Of a stretch of DNA of 64,000 nt, positions 5,738-9,860 are shown one piece after another (position 1 is the first letter of the stretch; the number at the start of each line of letters is the position of its first letter). A program made the position numbers and the translations under genes. Source of the stretch: Candidatus Binatia bacterium (lineage in GTDB: Bacteria > Eisenbacteria > RBG-16-71-46 > SZUA-252); contig DASQJL010000113.1 of NCBI GenBank assembly GCA_035631035.1, forward strand, positions 131,703-195,702, read 5' to 3'. The notes under the pieces were generated by a model. It was given only the letters and a program-made list of their open reading frames with translations. It did not search any database and had not been told where the DNA came from.

Positions 5738-5810
5738 GGGTTCCGGTCGGAGTTCGAGGGTTCGGGAGAACGTCCGGGCGGGCGCCCGGGCGCATCCCGA
5801 CGCCCAGGCC

Positions 5811-5826
5811 GATGCCCGGGCATCGG
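5811..5826. promoter_or_regulatory. 16-bp perfect palindrome CGATGCCCGGGCATCG in the divergent intergenic region (candidate operator)
   Basis: Seen directly. It lies about 75-90 nt upstream of the crotonase ATG and about 160 nt upstream of the HNH gene start, inside a 245-nt divergent promoter region. Confidence 0.3.
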
Positions 5827-5982
5827 GAGCCGCCGGGAAGCAAATCACCCCGGCTCCCACGTGTCAATGGCACCCGAGTCGCCCTGCTTCCCGCAGGTGC
5901 CCTCCTCGTGGTTCAATCATGGCCCCCTGGATCGTGACCCCACCCGATCCGTTCGTGCGACCTCCCCGAGACAGGAGTTCCC

Positions 5983-7557
5983 ATGCACGAGTATGCGTTG
6001 AACCATCTCAGCGACAGCGCCCTCCTTCGCGATCTGGCGCACCTGGTGCGACAAGACCGCGCGCTCACGGCCCGCATTGTCGCGCATCTCGGCGAGGTGG
6101 ATGCGCGGCGCCTGTACGCGCCGGCCGGCCATCCCTCGATGTTCGCGTATTGTGTGGAGGAGCTGCGCTTCTCGGAAGACGCGGCCTACAAGCGGATTCG
6201 GGTCGCGCGCGCCGCGCGCCAGTTCCCGGAGCTGTTCGCGGCGCTGGCGGATGGCCGGCTTCATCTCGCCGCGGCGTCGCTGCTGGCGCCGCATCTCACT
6301 CGGGAGAACGCGGGGAGGCTGATCGAGGCAGCGACCCATCGGAGCAAGGCCGAGGTCGAAAGCTGGCTTGCGCAGCGGTTCGCGGCCCCAATCCCCAGCG
6401 GGGCGCCTTCTGCCGTGATTCGGCCGATCGCCGGACTCGCCCCGGGGCGAGTTGCGGGCGTCCTCGGCGACCTGCTCGCCGGAACCCTGAGCGCCGCTAC
6501 GAATGTGCTCTCGATGGGGCTCGATCGTTCTGCGGGGCAGACGGGGCTCGATGGTCTGGGGCAGCCAGCGAGGCTCGATGGTCCGGCGCAGACGGCGAGG
6601 CTCGATGGTTCGGTTCAGACGGCGAGGCTCGATGGTCCGGGGCAGACGGCGGGGTTCGATGTCGGTCCGGGGCACCCGGTGGGGCTCGGCGCTTCGGCAT
6701 CGCCCATCGGCTCAAGCACCGCGCCCATTCAACCTCCCCTGGGGGCGAACACCGCCTTCCACGAAGGCCAACTCGCCCCGGGGCGAGTCGAGCCGGCCGC
6801 GTTGCCGGTCGAAGAGCGCTATTCGGTGCATCTCACCATCCCGAAGTCGACGCATGACAAACTCCGGCACGCCCAGGCCCTCTTGAGCCATGCGATCCCG
6901 TCCGGAGACGTCGTGCAGGTGCTCGACCGAGCGCTCGATGCGCTGATTTCGCGGCTCGAAACGCGAAAGATCGGATCCCAGGCGGGACGTCCTCGGTCCT
7001 CCCGGCCACGGGACGGTGCATCGGTTCCAAGGAGCCACGCTGCCTCGAATCGGAGAGCCCGTCCTGGAAGGATTCGCTACATACCTGCTCGTGTACGCCG
7101 CGCCGTCTGGGAGCGCGATCGCGGCCAGTGCACCTTCGTCACGCCGTCGGGCCACCGCTGCTCCGCACGCCGCTTCCTGGAATTCGATCACGTCCAACCC
7201 CTGGCGCGAGGCGGAAAGGCGACCGTCGAGGGATTGCGGCTGCGCTGCCGGGCGCACAATCAGCACGCGGCCGAGCAATCGTTTGGAACGGAGTTCATGA
7301 AGCACAAGCGGGAGCTGGCCCGCGCCGAGCGGGCGGTCCGTCGCGAATGGAAGTCAGGCGCCAAGGACCAGCCGGACCACGTGCGTGAGCCGTCGGGAGT
7401 GTGGCGGATCACGCAGCGGTCCGGGGTCGGGCAAACCCCCGACGGGCGCCGGATCACGCAGCGGTCCGGGGTCGGCCCGGGGGTCGGCGGATCATGGCAA
7501 CTCGCCCCGGGGCGAGTTCCCGCGCCGACTACCGAGCGTACGCGAAGCCGACCGTGA
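5983..7557 (+). CDS. HNH endonuclease domain protein with DUF222-like N-terminal region (REP13E12-like family)
   Basis: 524-aa ORF. AGGAG lies 7 nt upstream of the ATG. N-terminus LSDSALLRDLAHLVRQDRALTARIVAHLGEVDARRLYAPAGHPSMFAYCVEELRFSEDAAYKRIRVARA; C-terminal HNH motif CTFVTPSGHRCSARRFLEFDHVQPLARGGKATVEGLRLRCRAHNQH. The middle is repeat-rich. Confidence 0.7.
   Translation: MHEYALNHLSDSALLRDLAHLVRQDRALTARIVAHLGEVDARRLYAPAGHPSMFAYCVEELRFSEDAAYKRIRVARAARQFPELFAALADGRLHLAAASLLAPHLTRENAGRLIEAATHRSKAEVESWLAQRFAAPIPSGAPSAVIRPIAGLAPGRVAGVLGDLLAGTLSAATNVLSMGLDRSAGQTGLDGLGQPARLDGPAQTARLDGSVQTARLDGPGQTAGFDVGPGHPVGLGASASPIGSSTAPIQPPLGANTAFHEGQLAPGRVEPAALPVEERYSVHLTIPKSTHDKLRHAQALLSHAIPSGDVVQVLDRALDALISRLETRKIGSQAGRPRSSRPRDGASVPRSHAASNRRARPGRIRYIPARVRRAVWERDRGQCTFVTPSGHRCSARRFLEFDHVQPLARGGKATVEGLRLRCRAHNQHAAEQSFGTEFMKHKRELARAERAVRREWKSGAKDQPDHVREPSGVWRITQRSGVGQTPDGRRITQRSGVGPGVGGSWQLAPGRVPAPTTERTRSRP
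6435..6452. repeat. 18-bp perfect palindrome ACTCGCCCCGGGGCGAGT, copy 1 of 3 inside the HNH gene (encodes LAPGRV)
   Basis: Seen directly; identical copies at about 6771..6788 and 7500..7517, all in the same reading frame. Confidence 0.8.
6535..6669. repeat. Five copies of a 27-nt tandem repeat (CAGACGGCGAGGCTCGATGGTCCGGCG-like) within the HNH gene
   Basis: Encodes GQTGLDGL/GQPARLDGP/AQTARLDGS/VQTARLDGP/GQTAGFDVGP. The 9-aa periodicity is visible in the translated ORF. Confidence 0.75.
6771..6788. repeat. 18-bp perfect palindrome ACTCGCCCCGGGGCGAGT, copy 2 of 3
   Basis: Seen directly; in frame, encodes LAPGRV. Confidence 0.8.
7406..7475. repeat. Two exact copies of the 25-nt direct repeat GGATCACGCAGCGGTCCGGGGTCGG, spaced 45 nt apart, near the HNH gene 3' end
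   Basis: Encodes RITQRSGVG twice at the C-terminal tail of the HNH ORF. Confidence 0.75.
7500..7517. repeat. 18-bp perfect palindrome ACTCGCCCCGGGGCGAGT, copy 3 of 3
   Basis: Seen directly, 40 nt before the HNH stop; the TonB-receptor gene 3' end (7529) starts 12 nt further on. Confidence 0.8.
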
Positions 7558-9625
7558 TCCTTCGTCCCGGCGCGGGGTAGCCCTTCACTTCCTGGTAGCG
7601 GCGGTCCAACGCGTTCGTCAGGCGCACGCGCGCCTCGGCCGGGATCCAGCGCGCGAGAGACGCGGTAGCGCCCAGATCGAGCGCGGCGTAGCCGGGCGTG
7701 TCGCCCGAGAGCAGATGACCCTGGGGATCCACGAAGTCGAACGGATCGCGCATCGAGTCGGTCCAGCGCACGGACGCCGACGCGGTGGCCCAGGTGGCCG
7801 GCGCGGCCTCGATCCAGCCTCCGGCCCGCCACGCCGGACGCTTGGCGAGCCGTCGGTCGCTGCCGGCGCCCTCATTCAGATTCTTCGCGATCAGGCGGGC
7901 CGCCCATCCACCGACGGCGATGCGCCGAGAGGGCGCTACCCGCAGCGACGCCTCGCCCCCCTCGATCCGAGCCCGGCCGATGTTGTCCGCCGTGAAGAAG
8001 GAATTCGACTGGATGAGATCGCGAAACCGGGTCGTATGCCAGGTTGCGCGGGCCTCGAGACGGCCGCCGACCCAGTTCCCATCGGCGCCCGCCTCCCACG
8101 TCCGCGAGCGCTCGGGGCGGAGCGTCTCGGACCCGTAGAGCGGGTAGTAGAGATCGCTCAGGGTCGGGGCGGTGAACGCGCGGCCGTAGCCGCCGCGCAG
8201 CTTGAGCCCCACTTCTCGGATCGGCACCGCGATGGCCACCCGGGGCACGCCGATCGCCCCGTATCGCGAGTGATCGTCCAGCCGGACACCGGCATCGGCC
8301 AGCAAGCGCCGCCACTCGGCGTGCGCCTGCGCATACAGCGAGCGCGTGACCGCGATGTGATCGACGTGCGTCACCGAGCCGAATCCGCCATACCGCGAAT
8401 CGTCGTCCCGGGTCACGCTCTCTTCGCGGTATTCGGCGCCCGCGAGGAGCGAGCGCGACGCCGTTCCGATCCGCGCCCGCACGCCCGCGATCTCGCGCGC
8501 GTTGTCGAGCCGGGTGTCGACGTAGTCGCCACCCGTGGTATCGGGCCGGTTCTCGTAATCGATCCGGCCCCCGAACCCCGAGACCTCCCCCTCGAGCGAA
8601 ACCAGTCGTCCGAGTTCGCGGGCCGCCGACACGCGTCCCGTGATCACGCGGTCCCGCTCCTCCGTATTCGGGTCCAGCACCTCGTGCGTGAGGAAGTCGG
8701 ACAGGTCGAAGCGGTAGTCGTAGGGAACCTGTTTCACCCCGCGCGTGGCCAGCCCGCTGAACGCCAGGCGCCAGGGACCGACGGGCGCCGCCGCGTGCAC
8801 CCGGGTCGCGAGTCCGTCGTACTCGTCGCGTGGGCCGTCGCCGTCCGACGTGACCCGGCTCGCATACGCGCCCGCGGTCCACCGCTCGGGAGCGGCCCTC
8901 CACTCCGCCGATTGGCGCAGGGTGGCGCGATCGCCCACCTCGGCGCCGGCACGCAGCCGTGTCGGACCCGGATCCCACGGGCTCAGGAACTGGATCACGC
9001 CGCCCACCGCGCCGGTCCCGTAGAGCGAGGAGGCCGGGCCCCCCATGACCTCGATCTGTCCCCATCCGGCGCCGGGCAGGTCGGCGAAGTCAAACGTTCC
9101 GGCCCACGGGCCGTTGAGCGGGATGCCGTCGAAGAGCACGAGCGTATGACGCGGGTCGGCGCCGCGGAGCCGCACGTCGGTCAGCTTCCCCGTCGAGCCG
9201 GAGCGCTGGACGTCGACGGCGGGCACGGCACGCAGCGGGTCGGCGGCGAACAGCGCCTGGTCGCGATCGAGGCGCTCGCGTGCCACCACCGTGACGTCGC
9301 TGGGCGTGCGGTCCAGCCGGACCGGCGCGCGCTCGGCGGTGACCACGATCGGCGGAAGGAGATAGCGAGGCATCTCGGACGAGGGGGTCGCCGCGGCGGT
9401 GACCGCGCCCGCGGGCGTGCTCGTGGGGCCGACCGCGTCGGAGGGAGCGCCGGTGGGGCCGCCCGCGCCGCTCACAGCGCCCGGGGCCCCTGCCGACGAC
9501 GAATCCGCCGGGGGCGAGGAACCCTGCGCGCGCGCGGAAGCGACCGAGAACAGTATGAACATGGACAACACTAGAATTGACGACACGGCGAAGAAAACGG
9601 AGACGCGGAGACGAAGCGGTCCCAT
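7529..9625 (-). CDS. TonB-dependent outer membrane receptor (BtuB-like vitamin B12 transporter)
   Basis: Start at internal M52 (MGPLRLRVSVFFAVSSILVLSMFILFSVASARA signal peptide; GGGAGGACC before the ATG). Has a TonB box/plug (PIVVTAERAP...DVQRSGSTGKLTDVRLRGADPRHTLVLFDGIPLNGP...IEVMGGPASSLYGTGAVGGVIQF) followed by a long beta-barrel. Sits directly downstream of a cobalamin riboswitch. Confidence 0.85.
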   Translation of the reverse strand: MGPLRLRVSVFFAVSSILVLSMFILFSVASARAQGSSPPADSSSAGAPGAVSGAGGPTGAPSDAVGPTSTPAGAVTAAATPSSEMPRYLLPPIVVTAERAPVRLDRTPSDVTVVARERLDRDQALFAADPLRAVPAVDVQRSGSTGKLTDVRLRGADPRHTLVLFDGIPLNGPWAGTFDFADLPGAGWGQIEVMGGPASSLYGTGAVGGVIQFLSPWDPGPTRLRAGAEVGDRATLRQSAEWRAAPERWTAGAYASRVTSDGDGPRDEYDGLATRVHAAAPVGPWRLAFSGLATRGVKQVPYDYRFDLSDFLTHEVLDPNTEERDRVITGRVSAARELGRLVSLEGEVSGFGGRIDYENRPDTTGGDYVDTRLDNAREIAGVRARIGTASRSLLAGAEYREESVTRDDDSRYGGFGSVTHVDHIAVTRSLYAQAHAEWRRLLADAGVRLDDHSRYGAIGVPRVAIAVPIREVGLKLRGGYGRAFTAPTLSDLYYPLYGSETLRPERSRTWEAGADGNWVGGRLEARATWHTTRFRDLIQSNSFFTADNIGRARIEGGEASLRVAPSRRIAVGGWAARLIAKNLNEGAGSDRRLAKRPAWRAGGWIEAAPATWATASASVRWTDSMRDPFDFVDPQGHLLSGDTPGYAALDLGATASLARWIPAEARVRLTNALDRRYQEVKGYPAPGRRITVGFAYAR

Positions 9626-9659
9626 GGTCCTCCCTCTCGAAGGATGGGGATGGAATGGA

Positions 9660-9860
9660 GCAGGGGCCGGTCTCCTGACTCGCGGATCATCCTCGAGCGG
9701 CGCCTTCCCGGGGTTTCCCAGTGGCGTCGTGCCGCTCTCGTCACCGCTCACAGTGGCGGGGCCGTGTCGGATTCGCACCGACTTCCCGGGCTCCCACGGG
9801 GGGAGCCCATCCCGTGCTCGCCGCGCCCGCGTGGGCGCGACCCGCTCAACCTAGCAGAAC
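9660..9860 (-). promoter_or_regulatory. Cobalamin (AdoCbl) riboswitch in the 5' leader of the TonB-dependent receptor gene
   Basis: Minus-strand RNA reads ...GGGAAGTCGGTGCGAATCCGACACGGCCCCGCCACTGTGAGCGG...GCCACTGGGAAACCCCGGGAAGGCGCC...AGTCAGGAGACCGGCCCC. This matches the conserved GGGAA / GGTG-NAA-TCC / CCCGCCACTGT / GGGAAGGC / B12-box AGYCAGGAGACCKGCC elements. The B12 box ends about 38 nt before the SD and ATG. Confidence 0.85.

Follow-up and report, generated by a model that had tools for sequence, protein, structure and literature searches.

Palindromes and other repeats at the locus

The window, i.e. the whole stretch of DNA that was analysed, comprises 64,000 nucleotides (nt) of contig DASQJL010000113.1 (assembly GCA_035631035.1, Candidatus Binatia bacterium). 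It contains a gene for an HNH nuclease that carries, within its own coding sequence, three exact copies of the perfect 18-nt palindrome ACTCGCCCCGGGGCGAGT. The copies lie at 6435-6452, 6771-6788 and 7500-7517, with spacings of 336 and 729 nt, both multiples of three, and each of them is translated as LAPGRV, starting at residues 152, 264 and 507 of the open reading frame (ORF). An earlier note on this DNA had described these three in-frame copies, and a search of the window together with the translated ORF confirms them. No further copy is present in the window even if three mismatches are allowed; the number of such matches expected from dinucleotide shuffles is 0.25. The symmetry extends to 20-21 nt, as copies 1, GACTCGCCCCGGGGCGAGTTG, and 2 are reverse complements of each other over 21 nt, and copy 3 reads AACTCGCCCCGGGGCGAGTT. 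Copy 2 sits about 12 residues ahead of the conserved motif ERYxxxLTI, and copy 3 lies 10 nt from the stop codon of a convergent gene for a TonB receptor. The features of the locus are collected in Table 1.

Table 1. Features of the HNH nuclease gene and of the insertion that carries it (window coordinates).
Feature	Position	Strand	Remarks
HNH nuclease ORF, 524 aa	5983-7557	+	Helix-turn-helix (HTH), hinge, HNH
N-terminal all-helical domain, aa 1-136	5983-6390	+	Most conserved part
Predicted recognition helix, aa 65-80, EDAAYKRIRVARAARQ	6175-6222	+	Tyr69 6187-6189, Arg73 6199-6201
HNH (beta-beta-alpha-metal) domain, aa 365-460	7075-7362	+	Profile matches, alignment A1, fold
Palindrome copy 1	6434-6454	.	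LAPGRV aa 152-157 in frame; start of disordered hinge
Palindrome copy 2	6769-6789	.	QLAPGRV aa 263-269 in frame; hinge end
Palindrome copy 3	7499-7518	.	20 nt; exact TonB-side terminus of insertion
27-nt tandem array	6533-6661	+	4.9 copies, 83% matches; in hinge between copies 1 and 2
Direct repeat, 26 nt, exact	7405-7430 and 7450-7475	+	Disordered tail, just upstream of copy 3
Inserted element, ~1.65 kb	~5869-7518	+	Promoter/5' untranslated region (5'UTR), HNH gene, terminal palindrome
5'UTR/ribosome-binding site segment, GTGCGACCTCCCCGAGACAGGAGTTCCC	5947-5982	+	Directly before ATG; conserved in L204, L205 and L008

Two other repeats accompany the palindromes. The 27-nt tandem repeats are real, although the earlier note had counted five copies and placed them at 6535-6669, and the direct repeat, which had been given as 25 nt, is exact and one nucleotide longer. 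Both are missing from the positional orthologues in loci L204 and L205, and are therefore lineage-specific; the tandem array is also missing from the orthologous proteins P0002 and P0003. The reported 29-nt overlap of the HNH ORF with the convergent ORF of a TonB/BtuB-type receptor (stop codon 7529-7531) holds, as does the neighbouring riboswitch-btuB arrangement, a cobalamin riboswitch (9648-9825, minus strand) preceding the receptor gene.

The nuclease and its family

AlphaFold predicts two confident regions in the protein, an all-helical N-terminal domain (residues 10-135) and the HNH domain (365-460). They are separated by a disordered hinge (152-273), helices (288-331) and a disordered basic stretch, and a disordered tail lies behind the HNH domain. 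The three palindromes and both repeat arrays all fall in predicted disorder. In the model, the fold of the N-domain resembles the DNA-binding domain of ParB, KorB and Spo0J, with a putative HTH in which a helix at 53-60 and a four-residue turn lead to the predicted recognition helix. The C-terminal domain has the motif with His, Asn and metal/zinc ligands and the beta-beta-alpha fold of the HNH superfamily, and residues C383, D402, H403, C422, H425 and N426 are invariant in the 31-member alignment A1.

No curated family model covers this family, whose members are annotated as 'hypothetical' or 'McrA-like'. For the window protein, Pfam offers nothing but HNH matches below the threshold (E 0.011), NCBIfam finds nothing beyond a weak resemblance to the HNH portion of IscB, and PADLOC and PHROGs give generic HNH or restriction-enzyme matches (PADLOC 'REase_II', weak, E 0.0017). 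The initial assignment to an 'HNH/DUF222' type is right as to the HNH nuclease, but the DUF222/REP13E12 part does not stand, as Pfam DUF222 (PF02720) matches neither the window protein at E <= 1 nor any of 31 family members at E <= 0.1. A distant DUF222 kinship below the sensitivity of hidden Markov models is possible. The family is large: a word-indexed search matched more than 4,200 proteins, and 11,782 clusters at 50% identity match the N-domain alone. Among 2.9 million viral contigs there is no full-length relative, only generic matches to the HNH domain, and no match to the 18-mer; a phage collection gave no match, and a plasmid collection gave one short match to the HNH part only. Given these searches, an origin from phages or plasmids was rejected.

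The palindromes at the 3' end of the gene fall in all three frames, being read for example as TRPGAS in the orthologues P0002 and P0003 and as SPRGE in P0005 and P0006. The tail beyond about residue 460 is therefore probably unconstrained read-through as far as the protein is concerned. In 5 of the 31 family members a C-terminal domain matches Pfam RuvA_C (best E 3e-5). Members of this type include P0011, P0014, P0022, P0033, P0040 and P0053, among others (alignment A1, columns ~620-700); the window subfamily is without this domain and has instead the disordered tail that ends in a palindrome. Many contigs start or end in the hinge (L145, L154, L157, L175, L187), and many predicted proteins (P0241-P0382) are fragments of 150-300 residues with the N-domain only, so that the repeated palindromes seem to be points at which assemblies break.

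The palindrome is selected as nucleic acid

The relation between gene and palindrome was examined in an unbiased set of 80 HNH loci from metagenomes, drawn regardless of the presence of palindromes, which contain 62 in-frame motifs. Homologues of the gene have one to four L-[AV]-P-G-[RQPL]-V motifs, at two conserved places, directly behind the N-domain and about 12 residues ahead of ERYxxxLTI. Hinge copies are always in the Ala-Pro-Gly frame, which points to common descent and not to repeated insertion. The hinge palindromes are thus, on this comparison of sequences, ancestral and integral to the gene family.

Selection acts on the palindrome as nucleic acid, not on a peptide repeat. In the 62 motifs, the third base of the Leu codon pairs with the middle base of codon 5, the combinations being CTT/CAA (39), CTC/CGA (9) and CTG/CCA (6), against 8 that are non-complementary. 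Codons that these genes otherwise use rarely prevail in the motif: CAA accounts for 43 of the 44 Gln codons that precede the motif Leu and for 25% of Gln codons elsewhere in the same genes, CTT occupies 42 of 62 motif positions (9% elsewhere) and GTT 46 of 62 (14% elsewhere). At least eight perfect variants carry compensatory double changes, e.g. ACTTGCCCCGGGGCAAGT, ACTGGCCCCGGGGCCAGT, ACTTGCGCCGGCGCAAGT and ACTCGTCCCGGGACGAGT. The family consensus of the 18-22 bp palindrome is CAACTNGCCCCGGGGCN'AGTTG; its forms include CAACTCGCCCCGGGGCGAGTTG and the variants CAACTTG...CAAGTTG and CAACATG...CATGTTG. In a wider search, most homologues have a perfect hinge palindrome of 16-32 nt, with further variants; the longest, in the hinge of L129, is perfect over 32 nt (AACAGTCACCTGCCCCGGGGCAGGTGACTGTT).

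Palindrome and HNH gene family are associated. The 81.6 kb of HNH genes in the unbiased loci contain 60 perfect family palindromes, whereas the 290 kb of flanking DNA contain 2, both of which lie in truncated hinges. The three 18-mers are 100% conserved between the window, L204 and L205, while in the HNH gene the third positions of those four-fold codons that are conserved agree in no more than 54-55% of cases when the window is compared with either locus. Such identity of the 18-mers argues for strong purifying selection on the sequence itself. In the hinges of L001-L210, 12 of 25 one-mismatch palindromes are of the C/A type, and 9 of the 25 differ at the very centre, CCGG having become CCAG or CTGG (L049, L059). 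This pattern fits deamination of 5-methylcytosine at CCGG and hints that the centre of the site is methylated.

Protein residues covary with palindrome bases

Certain base pairs of the palindrome covary with N-domain residues. Of all N-domain columns in the unbiased loci, residue 73 (in KRI[R/Q]AARAAR) has by a wide margin the closest association with half-site position -6, Arg73 going with C:G or G:C and Gln73 with T:A. When 140 residues were scanned against 7 half-site positions, the top pairs were 73/-6 and 69/-7. Residues 69 and 73 stand at i and i+4 of the predicted helix 65-80, and base pairs -7 and -6 are adjacent. Two further, independent sets consisted of proteins only, the base being read from the motif residue, and the first of them was the top 120. 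In these sets Gln73 is found with A:T in 51 and 28 cases and Arg73 with G:C in 32 and 8, with 2 exceptions in each. Tyr/Phe69 is paired with a motif Leu, which stands for T at -7, and Ser/Ala69 with His, which stands for A at -7; crossed combinations at residue 69 are missing from the first set, and the second has three, all of them Phe69-His.

The grouping of the motif residues into {R,P} and {Q,L,H} makes sense only if they are taken as bases. The residue-73 classes are not two clades, since the mean N-domain identity is 0.64 for W-S and 0.61 for S-S comparisons. Arg-G and Gln-A are classical direct read-out contacts. The covariation is the principal argument for taking the palindrome to be the cognate site of the HTH domain of the same protein, and it points the same way as the suggestion, made at the outset, that the palindrome might be a recognition or target site of the encoded nuclease. 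It remains correlative, with statistics that carry no phylogenetic correction.

Insertion at the btuB/hydratase locus

The HNH gene is an insertion between the btuB (TonB-receptor) gene and an enoyl-CoA hydratase (ECH) gene, as is evident from the comparison of empty and filled loci in which gene order is otherwise conserved. The same 14-gene order is present without the HNH gene in L202 and L203, where 110 and 34 nt, respectively, separate the receptor gene from the ECH gene; the possibility of an insertion had been raised in the earlier note and is borne out by these two loci. L204 and L205 harbor the HNH gene at the same place, and in both of them the three 18-mers recur, a pair in the hinge and the third at the 3' end of the gene. 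According to alignments A2 and A3, the left junction lies right behind a shared anchor, TGTCAAT (5862-5868), in the ECH promoter region, and the right junction is the end of the 20-nt terminal palindrome. There is no clear palindrome at the upstream junction in the window, and the empty sites have none, save a weak resemblance, CGCCCCGCGG, in L202.

Receptor identity to the window is 75% for L202 and 71% for L203, and that of window-L205 is 0.79 and of L204-L205 0.82, compared with 0.75 for window-L202. The three filled loci therefore group together, and a single old insertion suffices. The HNH gene is the sole plus-strand gene amid minus-strand genes on its contig, which is from a soil metagenome (ENA), and the genes within 10 kb of it are metabolic or transport genes.

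Several other observations concern this region. The 5'UTR (GTGCGACCTCCCCGAGACAGGAG) is about 92% conserved even in L008, whose homologue has only 53% protein identity, and it may have a regulatory role. L204 (~180-500) and L205 (~440-760) have about 310 extra nt between the left junction and the 5'UTR; either the window has undergone a deletion here or the orthologues an insertion. In L202, an 11-nt spacer of the empty site (7939-7949, reverse complement ACGCCCCGCGG) matches the palindrome core TCGCCCCGGGG at 9 of 11 positions, which may be a coincidence in G+C-rich DNA or mark a relic or a target. Outside the insert, the hydratase upstream region contains another perfect 18-nt palindrome, CCGATGCCCGGGCATCGG (5809-5826), within a window-only segment of about 30 nt (region 5791-5826) that is missing in L202, L204 and L205 (alignment A2), as well as a 12-nt tandem repeat (5797-5821). 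The record of L202 (JBLMWD010000046) is labelled 'Bacteroidota', yet it is syntenic with the window, with 80-86% DNA identity over aligned blocks, and L086 (DATJGS010000019), labelled 'Saccharimonadaceae', has flanks of 72-75% G+C. The taxonomy given in the records of such metagenome-assembled genomes (MAGs) looks unreliable.

Dispersed copies and evidence for mobility

The earlier note had asked for the 18-mer elsewhere in genomes, and a scan of one genome per species found the exact sequence in at least 120 genome chunks. Record titles among the listed chunks include Eisenbacteria, Acidobacteriota, Vicinamibacteria, Myxococcales, Gemmatimonadetes, Oligoflexia and Bdellovibrionota, among others. 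The G+C content of the flanks ranges from 41% to 75%, so that the taxonomic breadth can be regarded as real despite the unreliable labels. An HNH homologue contains or adjoins the palindrome in 28 of the 120 listed chunks; the site is part of the hinge or stands at the 3' end, and a few genes (L014, L104) have one on either side. Among the ORF families encoded within 2.5 kb of the 18-mer in these chunks, that of the HNH gene alone is widespread, with 28 loci compared with at most 10 for each of the other clusters, whose content is unexamined.

The other copies are flanked by unrelated DNA, and most of them are found at the edges of genes or in intergenic DNA, a placement deduced from the periodicity of G+C at third codon positions (GC3), which is a rough measure that mis-calls the HNH genes themselves. 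A few copies in genes of actinomycetes look like chance matches. Apart from singlets, dispersed copies occur as doublets with a shared spacer, as composites with a second family palindrome and as tandem arrays with periods of 31-95 nt. Arrays of palindrome units are found in MAGs labelled Eisenbacteria (L105:4210-4422, L109:4695-4829 and L106:1646-2009), with periods of 31, 33 and 95 nt and up to 6.9 copies. At least 15 chunks with the exact 18-mer come from CAVUMT01, a MAG labelled Acidobacteriota, among them L018, L040, L043, L049, L067, L073, L079, L080, L098 and L120. The usual composite in this MAG consists of PAL1, 2 nt, CTCAAGTAGTYTCTCAA, 3 nt and a second family palindrome such as ACTCCGTCCGGACGGAGT, and a near-identical composite is present in L070, from a second MAG, CAVRVE01. 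In L014 (6480-6551), the palindrome upstream of the HNH gene follows a fragment that encodes ...EAELAFG, the end of an HNH domain, which points to the relic of a further HNH copy in tandem that ended at the palindrome.

Evidence that the gene itself moves is evolutionary only. Besides the empty and filled syntenic loci, it consists of related copies in other surroundings: loci L137 and L139, from one metagenome, are 88% identical over the gene and its upstream region and have unrelated flanks, four HNH loci are present in one MAG, and a paralogue of the window gene lies on a second contig of the same sample. For the flanks of the window palindromes in tail and linker, there are no meaningful matches in the other loci. 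Several blastn homology blocks end at a palindrome, but many of these breaks coincide with contig ends, and the block ends are therefore treated as effects of assembly. Two further possibilities were considered and dropped: an invertible, shufflon-like linker between copies 1 and 2, as the antisense frame set by the palindromes contains a stop codon, and domain shuffling at the hinge palindromes, as identities of the N- and C-domains correlate (r 0.82) with no strong outliers.

Proposed mode of action and alternative explanations

The explanation that is preferred, with a likelihood put a little above even, is that the palindrome would be the cognate duplex-DNA site of the gene's own nuclease and that gene and sites would together form a selfish or formerly selfish unit. 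The protein would be a sequence-specific HNH nuclease in which a ParB/KorB-like HTH domain is joined to the HNH domain through a disordered hinge and a short helical segment. Presumably a dimer of it would occupy the symmetric site, helix 65-80 would lie in the major groove, and residues Tyr/Phe69 and Arg/Gln73 would recognise base pairs -7 and -6, which are neighbours. The encoded peptide L-A/V-P-G-x-V would be dictated by the DNA site, and the sites would be tolerated inside the gene because the hinge and tail segments are disordered. As a chromosomal unit, the element would have been inserted once between btuB and the hydratase operon in an ancestor of the lineage and kept under purifying selection since then. 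Binding and nicking or cutting at the sites would promote recombinational copying of the gene and would leave or seed solo, doublet and array palindromes between genes, in the manner of repetitive extragenic palindromic (REP) sequences and REPINs with their REP-associated tyrosine transposases (RAYTs); the dispersed solo and clustered palindromes would then be by-products or targets. The same activity would destabilise the adjoining DNA, which could account for the 27-nt and the 45-nt-spaced duplications beside the sites.

Several points weigh against this proposal. With three target sites inside the gene, self-cutting would follow unless the enzyme only nicks DNA, is under some control or depends on a special substrate, and at the window locus a single old insertion followed by vertical descent is enough for the data. 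The homology boundaries of paralogues show no terminal repeats or defined termini. About a quarter to a third of homologues have no perfect hinge palindrome, and dispersed copies are plentiful only in some MAGs. The read-out is not free of exceptions, as Gln73 is found with C at -6 in 7 loci, and Ala, Glu, Thr, Cys or Trp73 with the CGCC variant in a sample that was selected for this variant. Binding and cleavage, like dimerisation and a role in propagation, are what we infer from the sequences.

It could be argued that the palindromes serve a domesticated HTH-HNH protein as operators or 'loading' sites, for an autoregulatory roadblock in its own gene or for a host function at sites across the genome, in the way of KorB, ParB or Noc, and not for propagation. 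The KorB- and ParB-like fold agrees with this, and so does the conservation of the locus, since over 21-29% divergence of the TonB receptor the gene has stayed intact with its invariant catalytic residues and the sites have stayed perfect. In addition, parS sites can lie within parB or spo0J genes. However, no palindrome is found in the promoter regions of the 80 unbiased loci, copies of the gene occur in multiple contexts within one MAG or metagenome, and the nuclease domain is conserved, which pure regulation does not need. Moreover, equally close syntenic relatives lack the gene, which is therefore dispensable, and this explanation is regarded as unlikely, though not negligible. A role as RNA is less likely, and is given a rather small chance: the palindromes would act as mRNA hairpins in stability, pausing or attenuation between domains, or as a bidirectional 3' terminator or stabiliser shared with btuB, the dispersed copies being REP-like stabilisers. 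The hairpins are stable, at about -16 to -19 kcal/mol for stems of 7-8 bp that enclose a CCGG loop, copy 3 is close to the receptor stop codon, and dispersed copies lean to the 3' ends of genes (55 vs 30, in the rough GC3 test). Nevertheless, a generic hairpin is not expected to show covariation between residues and base identities, nor the conservation in sequence, beyond mere pairing, of the CCCCGGGG core and the AACT/AGTT ends. Mismatches of the sense-strand G.U type are not enriched (3 of the 25 one-mismatch copies), no copy has a U-tract or a terminator-like call, and the Rfam search returned the cobalamin riboswitch and no other family.

Two explanations would separate the palindromes from the DNA-binding activity of the protein. 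That they are independent mobile elements of the REP type or of the Rickettsia palindromic element (RPE) type, moved by another enzyme and landing repeatedly in a tolerant hinge, is consistent with the dispersal of the 18-mer in many MAGs, mostly at gene edges or in non-coding DNA and also as doublets and arrays, and the earlier note had likewise thought of RPE-like palindromes inserted in frame. This has little to recommend it, as the hinge copies occupy two conserved positions in a single frame and the palindromes are absent from the flanks of up to 4 kb in the 80 unbiased loci, apart from the two in truncated hinges. Furthermore, neither a RAYT-like nor any other ORF family recurs as widely as the HNH gene, to which the palindromes are tied by the covariation between protein and site. 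The remaining explanation, a plain protein-level repeat in which LAPGRV is a short linear motif of a disordered linker, had been named in the earlier note as what would speak against mobile or targeting elements. Orthologues do keep the repeats at conserved positions, as it would predict, but the codon data already contradict it: the synonymous third base of Leu covaries with the amino acid at position 5, rare codons ending in A or T are used, and the residue classes are sensible only as bases. Copies at the 3' end are in other frames, the dispersed copies are largely non-coding, and next to no credence is left for this reading.

Comparison with known systems

If the palindrome is indeed the site of the nuclease, the arrangement would in effect be a hybrid of a REP/RAYT system and a free-standing HNH homing endonuclease, equipped with a ParB/KorB-like reader. 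Similarly to REP/REPIN-RAYT systems, short palindromes are dispersed between genes as singlets, doublets and clusters, the nuclease gene is associated with the repeats and in some genomes flanked by them (L014 and L104), and repeat variants and protein appear to co-evolve. RAYTs are HUH/Y1 enzymes of the IS200/IS605 type that act on imperfect single-stranded hairpins with a 5' GTAG. In contrast, the protein considered here is of the HTH-HNH type, and the palindromes are perfect, with a CCCCGGGG core, and lie inside the coding sequence of the gene itself; no HUH/Y1 transposase recurs widely within 2.5 kb of the 18-mer in the 120 listed chunks, where the HNH family alone is widespread. With free-standing HNH homing endonucleases (I-HmuI, phage Mob/Seg type), the gene shares the flexible linker that joins HNH to a separate DNA-binding module, and a presence/absence polymorphism at an otherwise syntenic, intergenic site, with no defined element termini. 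Known HNH homing endonucleases are phage- or intron-borne and have long asymmetric targets beside, not inside, their gene, whereas the site is symmetric here and there is no full-length relative among the 2.9 million viral contigs.

ParB-parS, KorB-OB and Noc-NBS systems, to which the modelled N-domain is similar in fold, are based on HTH dimers that bind palindromic sites of 13-16 bp or more scattered on the chromosome. The present protein differs in that it is without the N-terminal CTPase domain of ParB and has an HNH domain attached, and its gene is dispensable and inserted. A dimeric nuclease that would recognise a symmetric GC-rich site also recalls Type IIP HNH restriction endonucleases, but the sites are in its own gene and in the host genome, and no methyltransferase or other restriction-modification partner is encoded within 10 kb. 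RPEs are likewise palindromic DNA that lies in frame in gene regions that tolerate extra residues. They are about 100-150 bp long and inserted in many unrelated genes, while the palindromes described here have 18-22 bp and are tied to the DNA-binding domain of their own gene; their within-gene copies are those of one HNH family, at conserved positions and in a single frame, and the few elsewhere look like chance. REP13E12/DUF222-HNH genes of mycobacteria, which are listed among repetitive elements (PMC10589994), are also multi-copy genes of the chromosome, whose products are helical in the N-terminal part and have HNH at the C-terminus. Pfam DUF222, however, is unmatched in the 31 members of the present family, and no report of palindromes embedded in REP13E12/DUF222 genes was found in the literature.

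Significance for the nuclease family

No description of an HNH gene with its own embedded palindromes was found in the literature, and the pairing of gene and palindrome recurs in thousands of genes of soil bacteria. There is a substantial chance that they form a distinct and very widespread class. It is proposed more tentatively, at somewhat less than an even chance, that this is an unrecognised, very large class of 'nuclease plus cognate palindrome' units, with a self-written in-frame site, a read-out code at residues 73 and 69 and REP-like seeding, as an independent counterpart of REP/RAYT systems. The proposed class would comprise at least 11,000 clusters at 50% identity, mainly from uncultivated soil lineages (Eisenbacteria, Acidobacteriota, Myxococcota and others). 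In the code suggested by the covariation, Arg or Gln at residue 73 would stand for G:C or A:T, and Tyr or Ser at residue 69 for T or A.

If this is true, a very large family of 'hypothetical' or 'McrA-like' nucleases would obtain a function and a testable DNA target. The linker peptide would be dictated by the binding site for the product of the same gene, an unusual case of overlapping codes. The natural variants, in which protein and site are matched and two residues track two base pairs, could be used to study and re-engineer the specificity of a compact HTH-HNH nuclease. With respect to annotation, assembly breaks at the hinge palindromes would explain why genes of this family are so often broken in metagenomes. 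Finally, the nuclease would suggest an origin for REP-like palindromes in phyla without a known RAYT-type system.

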